A program made the translations under genes and the position numbers. DNA of 64,000 bases from Escherichia coli (GTDB lineage: Bacteria; Pseudomonadota; Gammaproteobacteria; Enterobacterales; Enterobacteriaceae): the NCBI RefSeq assembly GCF_024502345.1, contig NZ_JALDNN010000001.1; one strand, 5' to 3'. This document shows positions 8,293 through 20,181 of this stretch, one piece after another; positions within the stretch are counted from its first letter, which is position 1; each line of letters begins with the position of its first letter. Below the pieces are notes generated by a model. It did no database searches and was not told the DNA's origin. It saw nothing but the letters and a program-made list of their open reading frames with translations.

Positions 8293-8676
8293 TCAGGCCT
8301 TCTCAAGCATGGCGTGCTTCTGCAGGCTCTGGATACTCAGCGTTAAGCTCATCAGACAATTTTCAAGCTTATCGGCGTTGACGGTAATAACAGTCGGGCA
8401 ATCATGGTGCCCACTCATCAAACATACTGCGGCTGCCGCTAATGCTTCTTCAGCATGATGAAGAGCACTCCACTCTTCCTGATCCAGATGAAGATTCAAC
8501 CGCAGCGATTTATCGTGCAGTTCGCGATTCAGTTTAAAAAAGTTATCTCGTAGATGATTGCTTTCGCTGACGGACATGTATCCTTTTGCCTTCCTCAGTT
8601 GCACGTATGCAGCGAGGTCAACGCGTGCGTCGATCAACCGGTTCAGCAGATCGATTCGCTGTCTGTCAACGAACAT
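8293..8676 (-). CDS. bssR: biofilm regulator BssR (YliH)
   Basis: 127 aa from internal ATG of the 138-aa track ORF; recognised by sequence recall. Confidence 0.82.
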   Translation of the reverse strand: MFVDRQRIDLLNRLIDARVDLAAYVQLRKAKGYMSVSESNHLRDNFFKLNRELHDKSLRLNLHLDQEEWSALHHAEEALAAAAVCLMSGHHDCPTVITVNADKLENCLMSLTLSIQSLQKHAMLEKA

Positions 8677-10260: not shown

Positions 10261-11589
10261 TTACTGCCAGCTAATCTGAGCCCTGCCGTTTTTCTTACTC
10301 TTATACAGCCGCTCATCCGCCAGCATTTTCAAGCGTTCGACGGTGGTACATTCATTTGAATGCGCTACACCGATACTGGTACTTAAATTAATGCTTCCCA
10401 CCTGGAAATGAACGATTTCTTTTAGAATCGATAGCAACTCTTCCAGCGTTCCACCCGTATAAATCACCGCAAATTCGTCACCGCCGAAGCGGTAGATTTT
10501 ACCTTTATCTACCGGGATCTGTGATTTAAGGATTTTCACCACTTTCATCAACACTTCATCGCCCAGCAAATGACCGAAGGTGTCGTTAATGTTTTTGAAT
10601 TTATCGACGTCAAACAGGCACAAATAACCGCCTTTTTCCGGCAGCGCTTTTAAATCTTCGTCAAAGGATTTTCTGCCCATTGCTTTGGTCAGGTCGTCCA
10701 GGAACGCCGAGTTATACATACTGTAGAGTTTTTTGACATCGGCAGCCGAAAAGAAAAGCCCGCCATCCAGTACGCGTTCAAAATGGTTATTAATGATGGC
10801 TTCTTTCTCCACAATACCACGATTAATCACTCTGCGTACCAGATAGAGGCAACTGGTACCCGATATCACTGCCACCAATGCGGCAAAGAAAATAATCAAT
10901 GTACAGACCCGCAAATAAACATCTTTTTTATATGCAAATACGTACAATCCGGTCGGCAAATAGGCGAAGTGCTCCATCGCTTCCGAAACGGTGAAGATGG
11001 CGTTTTTAGCATTATATTCATCACCGGTCACCGGTTTACCGTTCTTAAATAGAGAGAACATCAGGTTCTCGCTGTCCATCGCCAGCGATTTTGACAGTAA
11101 AGAAAAACGCTCCAGACCAAGCAAAAATATCAGACTACGATTGTGAGTTACCGGATAGAGGTAATAGACGAAGGTTTTACCGTCAAAAGAGATAAACCCT
11201 GTATTTTTGACATGTCGATACTTCACAACCTGCATAATATCTGCACAATAATTTTTCTCGAACTCCTTTACCTGAATACATTCGTCACTGGAAATCAGAT
11301 AAGGACCGACATCGTACAAATAAGAGGGGGAAACCGAGTCGGCGTAAGCTGTGCGCAAACCAACCAACAGCTGTTCCTCCGTGGGATTTAGCGTGTTGAT
11401 AAGATCAATTGCCACGCTACGCCGATATTCAGCAATATTTGCCACCGCAAAAGCAGTATCAATAACGGACTGTTTCAGGCTATACACCCGTTCCTTTACC
11501 ATTTGAGTGTAGATCCCGCAGGCTACTGCTGAAATCATGATAAAAATCAGCAGACTGACTGTAAGTACGAACTTATTGATTCTGGACAT
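10261..11589 (-). CDS. dgcI: membrane-anchored diguanylate cyclase DgcI (YliF), GGDEF domain
   Basis: 442-aa ORF; N-terminal TM segments, C-terminal GGDEF domain with RFGGDEF motif. Confidence 0.9.
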
Positions 11590-11907
11590 ACGTAAACTAC
11601 TCTTTTACTAATTTTCCACTTTTATCCCAGGCGGAGAATGGCATGGGTTTCTGGTACAGATACCCCCGAGCCTGAACACATCCTAATTTAATTAATTCGC
11701 GCGCAACGTCTTCGCTCTCTACGCCTTCCGCAATCACCGGGATCCGGTTATAGCGTGCCAGATCGAAAATAATGCGCACAATTTTTCCCGCAGTACCGAA
11801 AATATCGCCGGTAAATTGCGAGTCCACCTTTATGCTGTCTGGATTAATTTCATAAAAACGTTTCAGGTTTGACAAACCGGTGCCAAAGTCATCAATCGAT
11901 ATCCGTA

Positions 11908-11916
11908 CCCCTTGTT
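11908..11916. repeat. IS1 target-site duplication, copy 1 (CCCCTTGTT)
   Basis: 9-bp sequence identical to 12685-12693 immediately outside the IS1 ends. Confidence 0.9.
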
Positions 11917-11931
11917 GGTAATGACTCCAAC

Positions 11932-12435
11932 TTATTGATAGTGTTTTATGTTCAGATAATGCCCGATGACTTTGTCATGCAGCTCCACCGATTTTGAGAA
12001 CGACAGCGACTTCCGTCCCAGCCGTGCCAGGTGCTGCCTCAGATTCAGGTTATGCCGCTCAATTCGCTGCGTATATCGCTTGCTGATTACGTGCAGCTTT
12101 CCCTTCAGGCGGGATTCATACAGCGGCCAGCCATCCGTCATCCATATCACCACGTCAAAGGGTGACAGCAGGCTCATAAGACGCCCCAGCGTCGCCATAG
12201 TGCGTTCACCGAATACGTGCGCAACAACCGTCTTCCGGAGCCTGTCATACGCGTAAAACAGCCAGCGCTGGCGCGATTTAGCCCCGACGTATCCCCACTG
12301 TTCGTCCATTTCCGCGCAGACGATGACGTCACTGCCCGGCTGTATGCGCGAGGTTACCGACTGCGGCCTGAGTTTTTTAAATGGCGGAAAATCGTGTTGA
12401 GGCCAACGCCCATAATGCGGGCGGTTGCCCGGCAT
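11932..12435 (-). CDS. insB: IS1 InsB (transposase catalytic part, expressed as InsAB' by -1 frameshift)
   Basis: 167-aa ORF overlapping insA in the -1 frame. Confidence 0.88.
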
Positions 12436-12629
12436 CCAACGCCATTCATGGCCATATCAATGATTTTCTGGTGCGTACCGGGTTGAGAAGCGGTGTAAGT
12501 GAACTGCAGTTGCCATGTTTTACGGCAGTGAGAGCAGAGATAGCGCTGATGTCCGGCGGTGCTTTTGCCGTTACGCACCACCCCGTCAGTAGCTGAACAG
12601 GAGGGACAGCTGATAGAAACAGAAGCCAC
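12354..12629 (-). CDS. insA: IS1 InsA (transposition inhibitor, N-terminal part of InsAB' transposase)
   Basis: 91-aa ORF with zinc-finger (CPSC...CSHC) and HTH; A6C frameshift motif near its 3' end (12371-12380 on + strand). Confidence 0.9.
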
Positions 12630-12684
12630 TGGAGCACCTCAAAAACACCATCATACACTAAATCAGTAAGTTGGCAGCATCACC

Positions 12685-12693
12685 CCCCTTGTT
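12685..12693. repeat. IS1 target-site duplication, copy 2 (CCCCTTGTT)
   Basis: 9-bp sequence identical to 11908-11916. Confidence 0.9.
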
Positions 12694-14899
12694 TACGCAG
12701 TTGTTCAATATTGAGATAAAAATGTTCATTAATTCGCTCGATCACGGTTTCAGTGATCTCAACACAGAGGCTGTTCGCCTTCAGGCCATTTTCTTTCATG
12801 ATGGTGGTAAAACGCTCATGAAAGTGCGGTTCGTTTAACTGCCAGGGCGAAACATTAATATGCAGTAAGAAATCATCCTTCAGCGACGCACGCTGACTAA
12901 AATGTCTGAATTCACCCATTGCCGTTTTAATAATCTGATAACCCAGCTCAATGATAAACCCGATATCTTCAGCAATGGTAATGAACTTCAGCGGTGAAAT
13001 GATCCCCCGCTCCGCAGAAACCCAACGGCACAACGCCTCCGCGCCCAGAATGGCGCGGGTGTTAATATCAACGATCGGTTGATAGACGAGGAATAGTTCG
13101 CCAATTTCCATTGCATGGCGAATATTACGCGCAATCCAGATATTCTCTTCTATTTCATTGAGTTTCGCGTCATCACAGAAAATAAACTCGGAGAACATAT
13201 GGTCACGGATACTGGAAATCGCCAGTTTCAGTTTTTCTGCGTAACTCCAGGCGTTTTCCCCCTGCAAAGGTTCACAAATGGCAGACTTATGGATGCGCAG
13301 ATTGCGGTAGCCAAAGCTGCTGTCAAAATCGTTTACCATCGCTATTTTACGGGTAAATGTCTGTACATTTTCCCGACACAGAAGTAAATAGAGATCGGCA
13401 TTGAATGTCACGATATCGCAGCATTGCGCATATTTCTCGGCAATTCGCTGACACAATTTCCTGACGATTTTATTGCGTTCATCAACACCAAACACCGCTT
13501 CCACGGCTTCCAGACCACACAGTTTGATGATCCCCACAGCCAGATACTGATTATTGTTGGACTCAATAATCGCCATATTTTTAATAAAACCGCTTTCCTG
13601 ATCGTAAGAGATCAGTGAGAGCAATTTATTTGACCGTTCAATTTCGGCATCTTTCATTTCCGCGATCGAATTTTTGATGCTGATAATCTCTTTCGCATCG
13701 CCTTCGCGAATTTTCAGAGCCTCGATCTGATCCGTTGAGTCGGGCAAAAACGCCAGCGTATTAACCAGCTCGGTCATTTCAGAAAATTGCCGACGGAACA
13801 CACGAGTGGTCATGAAATATACCACCAGCAACACGATAATAATGAACGCAAACGGTAGATAAAAAAGTTTATCTGATGCGTTCAATAAATTACCGCCAGG
13901 ATAATAAAAATAGATTTCGAACAATGCATTATTTGGCACTGCTGATGTCTTTGCAATATACTCCGTATCGACAGAATCAATAATATTATAATTACCTTCG
14001 CTATTATAAATAATCAGTTTTTCACGAGCGAGTTGATTCTTGGCAATGATCTCATGACCTTGTTTCAAAAATAGAACTTCATCATTAGCGCTGATTTGAT
14101 CAAGATACTCGTTCAAATACCGCCAGTTTAAATCGACATGAATTTTATCTACCGCTAACAAATCGTGATCTTTGCCGTTGATACGTAGCGTAAAAGAGAT
14201 ACATTTTTTACCCGGACGATCAAAGCAATTGTATGCCGGATTCCAGCTGTTGTTAGAGTCATCTGAAGCCACCGACCACGGTCGTTTCGATGGGTTAAAA
14301 TCGGCAAAAATAACCCGCCCTGACTCGTCGACAAGCGGTCCATTTACTTGTTCCTGATGATAAACAACGATTTTATCATTCGCCCTCCGTGAAAAGAGAT
14401 AATATTTATTATCATCAAGTACCAGTCCCACCGAGTCTAAAAATGGCATCATTTCCATTTTCAGAATCACGGCGCGTTGAATCTCCTCTGTATTTTTTAA
14501 TAAATACAGTGAGTCCTTTAATGTCAGGGCCGAACGTTCAATATCTTTAAAGAAATAGCCAACGTTTTTCTGAATAAGTTCAAAGCGGCTATCGGCACGT
14601 TTTACCGCGCGTTCCGATACCAGTTGATAGTTAATGATGAAAAAAAGACCAATAAATGACAGTGCTGCCAATAAAAATAAAATTATCAGCCTTATCTTTA
14701 TCTTTTCGTATAAACTCAGCATGTTAATACATTTAACAAAATAACTATCTGAACGCTGTGCCGCTGCAAAAATAGTCCCTTGCTGCGGCTTTTTAACCAA
14801 ATTACCCGATTCTACAAAATCAGCAGAAAGTTACAACACTTGCTTAGGGCAATAATTTCCTGTGAGGTGATTACCCTTTCAAGCAATATTCAAACGTAA

Positions 14900-16751: not shown

Positions 16752-18290
16752 TTATTGCAAATCCGCGTCTTCAAAGCTGAAGCCGGTGTCTGGCATGATC
16801 CAAAAACCGGTCAGGTTTTTACTGTGTGCCGACACCAGTTTTTCTACCACCAGCGGGATCCACGGCGACTCTTGCCAGATGATATCCTGCGCCGCCTTAT
16901 ACAAGCGGGTCTTTTCCGCCGGATCATTAGTTTTCAGTGCCTGAGCCAGGAAGTCGTCCACCTGTTTATTGCTGTAAAATGCGGTATTAAACAGCGTCGG
17001 TGGCCAGTTTTGCGAGGCGAACAGTGGCGATAGCGCCCAGTCCGCTTCGCCGGTTGAAGCCGACCAGCCAGTGTAGAACATCCGCACGCCGCTCTCTTTT
17101 TGCCCTTTACCTTCAACTTCTGCCGCCCGCTGTCCGGCATCCATCGCGGTCACCTGGGCTTTAATCCCGACCTGCGCTAACTGCTGCTGGGTAAATTGCA
17201 GCACTTTCTGCGCGGTGCTGTGGTTATGTGACGACCACAGCGTGGTACTGAAACCGTTGGGATATCCCGCCTCTTTCAGTAATTCGCGCGCTTTCACTGG
17301 ATCGTAAGGCCACGGTTTATAACTTTGCGCGTAGGCGATACTTGGCGGTACCACACCAGTAGCTGGCGTTGCATAGCCCGCAAAGGCAACTTTCACCAGC
17401 GCCGGACGGTTAATGGCGTAATTCAGCGCCTCACGGACCTTCGGGTTATCGAACGGCTTTTGCGTCACGTTCATACTGATATAACGCTGCATAATTGACG
17501 GACTGGCCATCAACTCGATATTTTTGTTTTTCTCCAGCAGTGTGGCCTGCTCGTAGGGAATGGGGAAAGCAAACTGCGCTTCACCGGTTTGCAGCATTGC
17601 CGCGCGGGTGTTGTTATCCGCCACCGGACGCCAGGTTATGCTGTCCAGTTTGGGCAATCCTGGCTGCCAGTAACCCGCGAATTTTTTCACCTTCACAAAA
17701 TCGGTCTGATTCCAGGTATCCAGTTCATACGGTCCGGTTCCCACCGGATGAAAACCAATCTCCTTGCCATATTTTTCCAGCGCTGCCGGTGAAATCATCG
17801 CGGTCGCCGGATGGGCAAGAATATTAATAAACGCTGAGAACGGCTGTTTGAGGGTAATCTTTACCGTTGTCGGATCGATCGCCTCCGTTTTGGCAATATT
17901 CTTATACAGGTTATAGCGTTTAAGATGATTCGCCGGATCGCTGGCCCGGTCCAGATTCGCTTTTACCGCCACTGCGTTGAAATCGATGCCATCCTGGAAT
18001 TTAATTCCTTCCCGCAATTTCACGGTGTAAGTAATGCCGTCATCGGAAACGGTATAACTCTCCGCCAGCACGTTTTTCAGTTTCATCTCTTTATCCAGAC
18101 CGAACAGCCCCTGGTAAAACGATTTCGCTACGGCCTGAGATAACGTGTCATTTGCGTCATACGGATCGAGCGTGGTGAAATTCGATCCTACCGCCACCAC
18201 CACATCTTTGGCAGCGAATGCACAAGATGCCATCAACGCTGTCGCAATGCCCAGCGCCACTAACCCACTACGGTGTACAGCTCTTGCCAT
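16752..18290 (-). CDS. gsiB: glutathione-binding periplasmic protein GsiB
   Basis: 512 aa from ATG at 18290 (track ORF is extended by 89 codons); signal peptide then family-5 solute-binding protein. Confidence 0.9.
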
Positions 18291-18309
18291 TTTATTCTCC
18301 GCCTGAATG

Positions 18310-20181
18310 TTATCTACGCATGAATGCGTATTCTGATTGTGGTTGTGCGACGTAATGCCCCGGCCCGACGCATTGCAACGAGACGGCTGCCACCTCTTCG
18401 CCACGCAGATGAATATTGCTGGGAAGATCGTCCGACAGCAGTACACGCTGCGGTCGTTGTCGGGACGGTTCCGCGACCGGAACTGCCGCCAGTAATTTAC
18501 GCGTATAAGGATGCTGCGGGTTTTCGAAGACCGCGCGCCGTGGACCAATTTCAACAATTTGCCCGAGATACATCACCGCCACACGATGACTAATCCGCTC
18601 TACCACGGCCATATCGTGGGAGATAAACAGATACGCAATGCCGAAATCACGCTGGAGATCGAGCAACAAGTTGATAATCTGCCCGCGAATAGAAACATCC
18701 AGCGCCGAAACGGCTTCGTCGGCAATGATCACTTTTGGATTCAATGCCAACGCGCGAGCAATGCAGATGCGCTGGCGCTGACCGCCGGAAAACTCATGCG
18801 GGTAACGCCAGGCATGTTCAGGTAACAGGCCCACGCGCTCCAGCAACCACGCAACGCGTGCAGCCGCGTCTTTACCTGGCAATAAACCGTGTACACGCAG
18901 CGGTTCGATAATCGAATCACCGATGGTCTGACGTGGGTCCAGCGAAGCGTAAGGGTCCTGAAAAATAAACTGAATATCCCGGCGCAATGCCTGAAGTTTG
19001 CCGGGTGACAAGGTATCGATTCTCTGACCGTTAAAGATAATTTCGCCGCCCTGCGATTCGACCAGGCGCAGCAACGCCCGCCCGGTAGTGGATTTACCGC
19101 TGCCAGACTCACCAACCAGCGATAGCGTTTCGCCAGGCCAGAGATCAAAACTGACTTTCTCAACGGCATGCACTTCCCGCGTTACGCGATTCAACAAACC
19201 GCTGCGCAAAGGGAAACGGGTGACCAGATTACGCACCCGTAAAACAGGTTCGCCATCCACCACCGTTTTCTGCTCGATGGGGGGTTCCTGTTTCGCTGGA
19301 TGTTCAAGCGATATCAACGGGAAACGTCGGGGATAATCTAACCCTTTCATCGCACCAAGTTGCGGAACAGCAGCTAACAGCGCACGGGTGTAAGGATGTT
19401 GCGGTGCATGAAAAATCTGTTCGACGGTACCCGTTTCCACCGCCTCGCCCTGATACATCACCAGTACCCGATCGGCAATCTCTGCCACCACGCCCATATC
19501 GTGAGTGATAAAGATAACGCCCATCGACATCTCTTTTTGCAATACTTTGATTAATTGCAGGATCTGCGCCTGAATAGTGACATCCAGCGCGGTGGTTGGC
19601 TCATCGGCAATCAGCACCGCCGGGCGGCATGACAGCGCCATCGCAATCATCACTCGCTGGCGCATCCCGCCAGAGAGTTGATGCGGATAACGTGAAAGAA
19701 TGGTTTGTGCCTCAGGAATGCGTACCTGATCCAGCATCCGCTTCGCCTCGACCATCGCTTCTTCACGACTGGCGTTCTGATGCAGACGAATTGATTCGGC
19801 AATCTGTTCACCCACAGTAAATACCGGGTTCAGCGATGTCATCGGCTCCTGAAATATCATCGCCATATCCGCACCGCGAACATGGCGCATTTGTGCAGCG
19901 CTCTGCTCGCTAAGTTCAATCACTTCGCGACTGCGCCGCTGCAACAGCATTTTATCGCACTGTACTAAACCGCCCGCCTGTTCCAACAGGCGCATCAATG
20001 CCAACGCAGTCACTGACTTACCGGAGCCGGATTCGCCAACAATTGCCAGCGTCTCACCGCGTTGCAGACTAAAAGAGAGATTGCGGACCGCAGCTATTTT
20101 CTGCTGGTCCTGCATAAAGGCAATATTCAGATTTTCAACCGCCAGCACATTACCGGCATCAAGTTCATCACTGTGTGGCAA
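18310..20181 (-). CDS. gsiA: glutathione ABC transporter ATP-binding protein GsiA (two fused ABC domains)
   Basis: 623 aa if initiated at the TTG at 20181, giving a 14-nt overlap with the iaaA 3' end; two Walker A (GESGSGKS) motifs. Confidence 0.85.

Follow-up and report, generated by a model that had tools for sequence, protein, structure and literature searches.

The interruption of the EAL-domain gene pdeI (yliE) by an IS1 element in a chromosome of Escherichia coli raises the question of what becomes of the truncated PdeI protein and, above all, of dgcI (yliF), the diguanylate cyclase gene located immediately downstream. The locus lies within a stretch of 64 kb, hereafter the window. The original prediction held that the insertion could abolish the phosphodiesterase and, by polar or promoter effects, alter transcription of the cyclase gene, thereby shifting the balance toward c-di-GMP synthesis. 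Its structural premises are borne out by the coordinates: pdeI and dgcI are adjacent on the same strand, and insA-insB of the IS1 element are read in the same direction, all being encoded on the minus strand. The pdeI stop at 11597 and the dgcI start at 11589 were also placed correctly, but the interval was given as 8 nt, whereas the spacer that separates the pdeI stop codon from the ATG of dgcI, as read from the sequence (11590-11596, minus strand), comprises 7 untranslated nt.

The inserted sequence is a complete IS1 of 768 bp (11917-12684, minus strand), delimited by inverted repeat and direct repeat detection. Its imperfect 23-bp inverted repeats lie at 11917-11939 (right) and 12662-12684 (left), with arms that are 78% complementary, and a perfect direct repeat of 9 bp, the target duplication CCCCTTGTT, borders the element on both sides (11908-11916 and 12685-12693). 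The insA gene (12354-12629, minus strand) encodes a product of 91 aa, the IS1 repressor or N-terminal part of the transposase, while the insB' frame (11932-12435, minus strand) is reached from insA by a -1 frameshift at the TTAAAAAAC motif (A6C), which is located at window positions 12380-12372 and corresponds to IS1 nt 305. The InsAB' fusion reconstructed in silico comprises 232 aa and is recognized by the NCBIfam model NF033558, 'IS1 family transposase', with 243.8 bits versus a cutoff of 100. All features by which the IS1 family is recognized are present, namely, a length of ~768 bp with ~23-bp inverted repeats, an insA/insB' -1 frameshift at A6C, and a target duplication of 8-9 bp. The element is 99.5% identical to a RefSeq IS1 annotated as 'IS1B family' and shares its size, inverted repeats, A6C frameshift, and 9-bp duplication with IS1 of the IS1A/IS1B type, from which it shows no structural difference. 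It is an ordinary, intact mobile element, present in a single copy in the 64-kb window. A promoter-like site identified by consensus match, CTGCCA-16-TATGAT (12650-12677, minus strand), is found within the left inverted repeat, at what we take to be the known place of the InsA-repressed insA promoter. The promoter of IS1 has little strength and is repressed by the element's own InsA, and translation of insB' occurs only via rare frameshifting.

The insertion splits pdeI into a 5' part (12685-14722, minus strand), which starts with the ATG at 14722 and comprises codons 1-679 and the first base of codon 680, and a 3' remnant (11597-11916, minus strand), which holds the duplication copy 11908-11916 and comprises codons 680-782 and the stop codon TAG (11599-11597). 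Because in silico deletion of IS1 together with one copy of the duplication restores full-length, undamaged PdeI of 782 aa, the interruption represents a single, recent, and clean transposition into codon 680 of a chromosomal gene. The 5' frame continues for 5 nt into the left end of IS1 and stops at a TGA (12682-12680), giving a 680-aa product; this exact truncated protein is encoded on 6 public contigs. The open reading frame left within the remnant (11597-11875, 92 aa) appears in the NCBI annotation under WP_256632802.1 as a fragment of an EAL-domain protein. Further upstream, the 177-nt spacer between gsiD and pdeI bears a candidate pdeI promoter, TTGTAA-16-TAGAAT (14809-14836, minus strand), proposed from a consensus match alone.

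According to Pfam, the reconstructed PdeI contains a CHASE9 domain at residues 35-150 and an EAL domain at residues 532-767. The truncated protein retains the CHASE9 sensor, the degenerate GGDEF region, and 148 of the 236 EAL-domain residues, and it has lost the C-terminal 103 residues, among which are positions that serve metal binding and catalysis in the EAL domain. A complete EAL domain, as defined by EAL, N, E-x-x-E, DDFG(T/A)G, K, E, and Q residues for catalysis and metal binding in one polypeptide, is thus present in the reconstructed protein and absent from the encoded 680-aa product. Since the DDFGTG motif (685-690), the IKVD lysine (705-708), the EGVE motif (740-743), and the QARGY glutamine (758-762) all lie beyond the break after residue 679, truncated PdeI should be devoid of phosphodiesterase activity, in line with the original prediction; sensor, scaffold, or degenerate-GGDEF functions may persist. 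In this lineage, pdeI is a disrupted member of the EAL phosphodiesterase family. As to the intact protein, the literature is divided: PdeI is a predicted phosphodiesterase, yet its overexpression was reported to raise c-di-GMP ~11-fold via its degenerate GGDEF domain (PMC11651652), so that c-di-GMP need not increase when PdeI is lost.

The downstream gene dgcI (10261-11589, minus strand) is intact. Its 442-aa product comprises a GAPES2 periplasmic sensor (Pfam, residues 26-229) and a GGDEF diguanylate cyclase domain (residues 295-437; TIGR00254, 91 bits versus a cutoff of 37.4), with an undamaged GGDEF active-site motif at residues 369-373. The exact DgcI sequence is a common allele found on at least 1000 contigs. 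The GC content of pdeI and dgcI is 41-43% versus 52% for the whole window. Given the 7-nt spacer and a weak Shine-Dalgarno element (GAG, 10 nt upstream of the ATG), dgcI is probably coupled translationally to pdeI. We also infer that the two genes are normally co-transcribed; in CFT073, they increase jointly at 37 °C, which fits a single operon (PMC12890032). With this operon-like gene order, an influence of the insertion on dgcI transcription is plausible. The bssR gene (8293-8676, minus strand), to which attention had been drawn as lying about 3 kb away, is indeed 3.2 kb distant from IS1, but the distance to the end of dgcI, where rimO intervenes, is no more than 1.6 kb; the proximity of bssR is uninformative because bssR-rimO-dgcI-pdeI is the normal gene order in K-12.

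On balance, it is fairly likely that the insertion acts chiefly as a polar block on dgcI and that it represents a landing of IS1 in AT-rich dispensable DNA, not a product of selection. A transcript initiated at the pdeI promoter would now have to cross ~1.1 kb of mostly ribosome-free RNA before dgcI: ribosomes would quit the pdeI message at the TGA within the IS1 left inverted repeat, insA would be translated, and insB' together with the 320-nt pdeI remnant, which has no proper start, would stay largely untranslated. It is classical knowledge that IS1 is polar, a long untranslated RNA reducing expression of the genes downstream. A sequence scan of the coding strand from insB' to dgcI revealed no intrinsic terminator, and the transcript stretch 12554-12321 is C-rich and G-poor, with a C/G ratio of 1.3-1.9, which by this crude composition test is compatible with Rho loading. 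Since both Rho-dependent termination and the loss of coupling would be expected, dgcI expression should fall. A residual trickle might be supplied by read-through of transcripts from the pdeI or IS1 promoters or by a possible internal start site. Upstream host promoters have been found to transcribe into IS1, and a reporter placed directly after the element was expressed, also from the IS1 promoter (PMC12428005); some read-through therefore exists, and the polarity may be partial. The case resembles other instances of IS1 inactivation with polarity, which likewise combine an AT-rich target with a hit in the upstream gene of an operon-like pair. Polar and promoter effects had been proposed side by side; the long stretch of RNA that precedes dgcI, most of it without translation, speaks for a polar decrease of dgcI rather than an increase, while the promoter part finds no counterpart, as a consensus scan of the minus strand from the IS1 right end to the dgcI ATG (11590-11940) detected no sigma-70-like promoter with a match of at least 9/12. 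Overall, c-di-GMP would probably change little and in an uncertain direction because DgcI is undetectable in K-12, where a dgcI reporter fusion is barely expressed (PMC5635695), and because of the PdeI overexpression effect described above.

A wider view of the locus was obtained from 5,426 complete E. coli genomes (RefSeq), the counts below being genomes and not independent events. Within pdeI-dgcI or in its vicinity, 64 genomes carry IS1 in the same orientation as in the window and 57 carry it the other way round, so that no bias was found that would point to selection for read-through. At control loci, IS1-bearing genomes number 60 for htrE, 94 for cdgI/dgcJ, and 1 for gsiAB. Taken alone, the GC-typical neighbour gsiAB as a control had hinted at a strong enrichment in pdeI, but the AT-rich controls htrE and cdgI/dgcJ are equally occupied, so the pattern is general to AT-rich dispensable DNA, and the notion that IS1 favours pdeI in particular, or that selection acts there, was dropped. 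The presence of IS1 in pdeI most likely reflects its general landing and persistence in AT-rich dispensable genes rather than selection on this signalling pair.

Twelve of the genomes with IS1 in the same orientation (e.g., strains 40EC, GPEC1201, ETEC4088, and AL.H8) were sampled and turned out to carry it at 12 different sites, with an 8-9-bp target duplication in 11 of them. Nine insertions map within pdeI at nt 134, 157, 277, 1131, 1514, 1773, 1846, 2009, and 2330, and a tenth lies in the EAL-coding part of the gene, with the exact site unmapped; as for the other two, one carries IS1 in dgcI and one an IS1-adjacent deletion of ~1 kb of dgcI. Wherever IS1 resides in pdeI in a sampled genome, dgcI is annotated as intact. 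These insertions involve the same element and the same genes as in the window, yet they are independent events, and none occupies the window site, which follows pdeI nt 2038 and is new with respect to the 5,426 genomes, the insertion being otherwise a standard one for IS1. The exact pdeI/IS1 junction is absent from all 5,426, and 8 apparent matches proved to be IS1 at other sites, the nearest being 21 nt off; the junction was therefore rejected as a lineage marker shared with these genomes. The best identity of the window to complete genomes, only 99.7% over 24 kb, had raised the suspicion of a Shigella origin, which was rejected since NCBI assigns the 92-aa fragment to E. coli, on a contig of 4.74 Mb. 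IS-mediated loss of c-di-GMP turnover genes in AT-rich DNA is frequent and lineage-specific (PMC11327459; PMC13320778). Comparable cases are dgcJ::IS1, cdgI::IS1 (including some MG1655 stocks), and the GGDEF/EAL pseudogenes of Shigella; they affect different genes, while in the window the hit is in the first gene of a pair encoding a phosphodiesterase and a cyclase, so that polarity on its partner dgcI is at issue. The literature collection searched contained no publication on IS1 in yliE/pdeI.

A polar effect would be of no consequence if dgcI were transcribed from a separate promoter, situated either within the final 320 nt of pdeI or where the two genes meet; PdeI would then be truncated with dgcI expression unchanged. 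This seems rather unlikely, although two published observations speak in its favour. An RpoN holoenzyme peak has been located in vitro by genomic SELEX at K-12 position 874568, between yliE and yliF (yliE>yliF), and assigned to yliF (PMC8743547), and a second in vitro peak at the same position, listed in a flagellar-sigma section, has received the same assignment (PMC5493296). These binding peaks make an independent dgcI promoter possible, and with such a promoter dgcI would be insensitive to IS1. In addition, the pdeI remnant downstream of IS1 bears a weak sigma-54-like motif, TGGCAC-N-TTGTCA (TGGCACCGGTTTGTCA; 11885-11870, minus strand), which overlaps the DDFGTG codons. However, the motif has 2 mismatches, and sigma-54-like matches in the window are no more numerous than expected by chance (40 found versus 43 expected), for which reason a sigma-54 promoter was not accepted and the motif is kept as a lead because the published RNA polymerase binding peaks lie close to it. 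Moreover, binding in vitro does not define a start site, sigma-54 requires an activator, the interval contains no sigma-70-like site, and the 7-nt spacer along with the joint temperature response suggests co-transcription.

That IS1 not only removes the phosphodiesterase but also sustains or raises dgcI transcription, whether through transcripts that read on from the insA promoter or via a hybrid promoter at its right end, and thus promotes c-di-GMP synthesis, must be regarded as improbable. IS1 is said to create hybrid promoters with the -35 element in the IS end and the -10 element in the flank (reportedly Prentki et al. 1986), and the right end with its -35-like TTGGAG faces the downstream gene in the window as well; however, the sequences found 16-18 nt further on (GTACGG, TACGGA, or ACGGAT) provide no usable -10, so that the defining feature of a hybrid promoter is absent, and a complete outward promoter was not found either. 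The co-directional orientation of IS1, the terminator-free coding strand from insB' to dgcI, and the expression of a reporter behind IS1 would all permit read-through, but the IS1 promoter from which it would start is weak and repressed by InsA, and natural insertions show no preference for the orientation that would exploit it. The S. flexneri DgcI orthologue acts as a strong cyclase in c-di-GMP synthesis when expressed from a plasmid in Shigella flexneri (PMC11327459), but in K-12 DgcI is undetectable (PMC5635695), and PdeI overexpression increased, rather than lowered, c-di-GMP (PMC11651652). With the expected polarity added, the shift toward c-di-GMP synthesis that the original prediction had envisaged is not supported. 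It is very improbable that IS1 uncouples dgcI from pdeI control, through read-through or an alternative-sigma promoter in the pdeI remnant, while PdeI(1-679), with its CHASE9 sensor and degenerate GGDEF domain retained, promotes c-di-GMP accumulation, which would result in a constitutively raised, signal-blind output with a biofilm or persistence phenotype. Finally, misplacement of an IS1 copy into pdeI during assembly, conceivable because IS1, being multicopy, frequently fragments or misleads assembly and because the junction is seen in 0 of the 5,426 complete genomes, is practically negligible: three public assemblies, independent of one another, share the identical left-end junction, the target duplication is perfect and excision restores the frame exactly, and the pdeI fragment is annotated by NCBI on an E. 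coli contig of 4.74 Mb.

The pdeI::IS1 insertion, with a polar decrease of dgcI as its favoured consequence, is real and belongs to an already known kind of event; it is routine because such IS1 insertions are common in AT-rich dispensable genes of E. coli. Its importance is small beyond strain-level annotation, where pdeI is to be treated as a pseudogene in this lineage and dgcI flagged as possibly under-expressed. A mildly useful by-product of the analysis is that IS1 occupancy follows AT-rich dispensable genes (pdeI, cdgI/dgcJ, and htrE) and is nearly absent from GC-typical gsiAB; an individual insertion of IS1 into a c-di-GMP gene is thus, without further evidence, not to be taken as adaptive.

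The gene order in the window is gsiABCD–pdeI (yliE)–dgcI (yliF)–rimO–bssR, inverted relative to K-12, and pdeI is split by a 768-bp IS1 (11917-12684, minus strand) with imperfect inverted repeats of 23 bp at its ends. The target duplication, CCCCTTGTT, is a perfect direct repeat of 9 bp and stands on both sides of the element (11908-11916 and 12685-12693). The element is 99.5% identical to a RefSeq-annotated IS1, and no other copy is present in the 64 kb. Its insA product is 91 aa long, an A6C slip site is found in the element, and a −1 frameshift yields a 232-aa InsAB′, which scores 243.8 bits (cutoff 100) against the NCBIfam model NF033558 (“IS1 family transposase”). All the defining IS1 features tested were found, and the copy is intact. 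Both insA and insB′ lie on the minus strand, like pdeI and dgcI, so the coordinates and orientations of the original prediction were right; 7 nt separate the pdeI stop (TAG, 11599-11597) from the dgcI ATG (11589). On the plus strand, the right end of IS1 and the target duplication form a small hairpin (GTTGG...CCAAC, 11914-11931) followed by a T-rich run, which resembles a terminator for antisense transcription from the dgcI side and is probably fortuitous.

When IS1 and one repeat copy are removed in silico, the 782-aa PdeI becomes uninterrupted again; the insertion is therefore a single clean and recent event, with no further decay of pdeI. Intact PdeI comprises the Pfam domains CHASE9 (35-150) and EAL (532-767). 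The break follows residue 679, after which one glycine and a TGA within the IS1 left inverted repeat (12682-12680) end a truncated protein of 680 aa. The EAL, N, and E-x-x-E motifs are still present in it; DDFGTG (685-690), the IKVD lysine, EGVE (740-743), and the QARGY glutamine are missing. The EAL domain is thus incomplete, the disrupted pdeI is a pseudogene, and, given the established EAL catalysis, c-di-GMP hydrolysis by the truncated protein should be abolished. dgcI is intact, with GAPES2 (26-229) and GGDEF (295-437) domains and the GGDEF motif at 369; it passes the GGDEF tests, and the DgcI protein sequence is a common allele present in at least 1000 contigs.

The exact 680-aa truncated PdeI is encoded by six public contigs, of which three were read: one from a Logan run and two from ENA metagenome assemblies. 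In each of these three, pdeI gives way to the left end of IS1 at the identical base. Within the 3′ pdeI remnant (11597-11916), the 92-aa ORF carries an NCBI annotation as a protein of E. coli, on a contig of 4.74 Mb. This pdeI/IS1 junction is absent from all 5,426 complete genomes of E. coli in RefSeq, among which the best identity to a 24-kb flanking core-genome stretch (15000-39000) is 99.7%; the lineage is therefore real and not closely represented in that set.

As to transcription, a consensus scan places a candidate pdeI promoter at 14836-14809 and a promoter-like site at 12677-12650, in the left inverted repeat, where the IS1 promoter is known to lie; from the IS1 right end to the dgcI start codon, the coding strand yielded neither a sigma-70-like site nor an intrinsic terminator in the same scan. 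A transcript from the pdeI promoter would shed ribosomes at the TGA in the IS1 left end and regain them for insA only, insB′ being read by rare frameshifting alone, which would leave about 750 nt of mostly untranslated RNA (insB′ and the 320-nt remnant) before dgcI. Where insA and insB′ overlap, the sequence is rich in C and poor in G (C/G 1.3-1.9 at 12554-12321), and IS1 insertions were shown in classical work to be polar and Rho-dependent. Taken together, these points suggest that the insertion most likely decreases dgcI expression. The functional part of the original prediction was thus half right: the phosphodiesterase has lost its catalytic domain, while the insertion probably lowers dgcI expression rather than raising it. 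Upstream host transcription is able to enter IS1, and a reporter placed directly after IS1 is expressed (PMC12428005), so some read-through occurs.

Simple polarity is opposed by peaks of RNA polymerase binding in vitro at the K-12 yliE/yliF junction, where dgcI might have its own promoter: genomic SELEX gave one for RpoN (PMC8743547), and a second such study lists a peak in its flagellar-sigma section (PMC5493296). The sigma-54-like motif at 11885-11870 (minus strand) is no better than chance, with 40 found vs. 43 expected. In this place, the DDFGTG codons of the EAL motif (gactttggcaccggt) create TGGCAC, a −24-like element of sigma-54; the identical coding constraint would put TGGCAC in many EAL genes, and this could be a source of such peaks without promoter function. 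A hybrid promoter is not predicted: 16-18 nt from the −35-like TTGGAG at the IS1 right end, no suitable −10 is found, so that this model lacks its defining feature.

DgcI is one of four GGDEF/EAL proteins undetectable in K-12, its reporter fusion being barely expressed (PMC5635695), although cyclase activity is seen on its expression in S. flexneri (PMC11327459). In CFT073, pdeI and dgcI go up jointly at 37 °C (PMC12890032), as expected of a single operon, in which a polar insertion would reduce the expression of the two genes alike. PdeI overexpression was reported to raise c-di-GMP about 11-fold via a degenerate GGDEF domain (PMC11651652), and this domain is still present in the truncated protein. 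The proposed shift toward c-di-GMP synthesis is therefore not supported; the net effect could have either sign and is probably small.

The occurrence of IS1 at this locus across E. coli was assessed in 5,426 complete genomes with equal-design queries (2,361 nt of host DNA with the 768-nt IS1 in the middle), the pdeI region (10261-14722) being compared with 16999-19360 and with two further loci, L016 (6786-9146) and L017 (4950-7310). A genome was counted if one place covered at least 80% of the query, that is, if IS1 lay in the query's orientation in or within ~2 kb of the locus; the counts are of genomes, inflated by clonal groups, and not of independent events. On these terms, IS1 was found at pdeI (GC 41%) in 64 genomes in the orientation of the window and in 57 in the opposite one, at cdgI/dgcJ (44%) in 94, at the fimbrial usher gene htrE (43%) in 60, and at the adjacent, GC-typical gsiA/gsiB (16999-19360; 53%) in only one. 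In one orientation, IS1 occupancy thus tracks AT-rich dispensable genes, and the pdeI rate is that of other such genes, c-di-GMP-related or otherwise. The unbiased orientation gives no sign of selection for read-through into dgcI. The GC content of pdeI (41%) and dgcI (43%) vs. 52% for the window and 53% for the neighbours rimO and gsiD fits the known preference of IS1 for AT-rich targets. DNA bound by H-NS or acquired horizontally typically has such a composition, which may be the reason both for the very low K-12 expression of the two genes and for the attraction of IS1.

In all 12 fetched pdeI/dgcI loci (L001, L005-L015), the insertion sites are different, and 11 have their own 8-9-bp duplication; the twelfth, L010 (PK13), lacks one and is also missing ~1 kb of dgcI, a sign of a deletion next to IS1. 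IS1 has thus struck the locus independently on many occasions. dgcI is annotated as intact in every sampled genome with IS1 in pdeI. In L008 (AL.H8), IS1 lies 19 nt before the pdeI end and ~27 nt ahead of the dgcI start codon, and in L009 it lies within dgcI. One genome group (e.g., MIN12, DA33133, YJ3, KFu023, EC25, and Ec-2977) has IS1 in pdeI, in the opposite orientation, and another in cdgI; it looks like a clonal lineage with several c-di-GMP genes lost to IS1.

Insertion sequences are well known to have removed single GGDEF/EAL genes elsewhere, as in Shigella (PMC11327459, PMC13320778), and MG1655 stocks with dgcJ::IS1 alleles, which turned up among the cdgI/dgcJ matches, are a further example. 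The pdeI::IS1 allele is an ordinary one, and it is both real and correctly described: its insertion site was not seen in the searched genomes, but events of this kind are thoroughly familiar.
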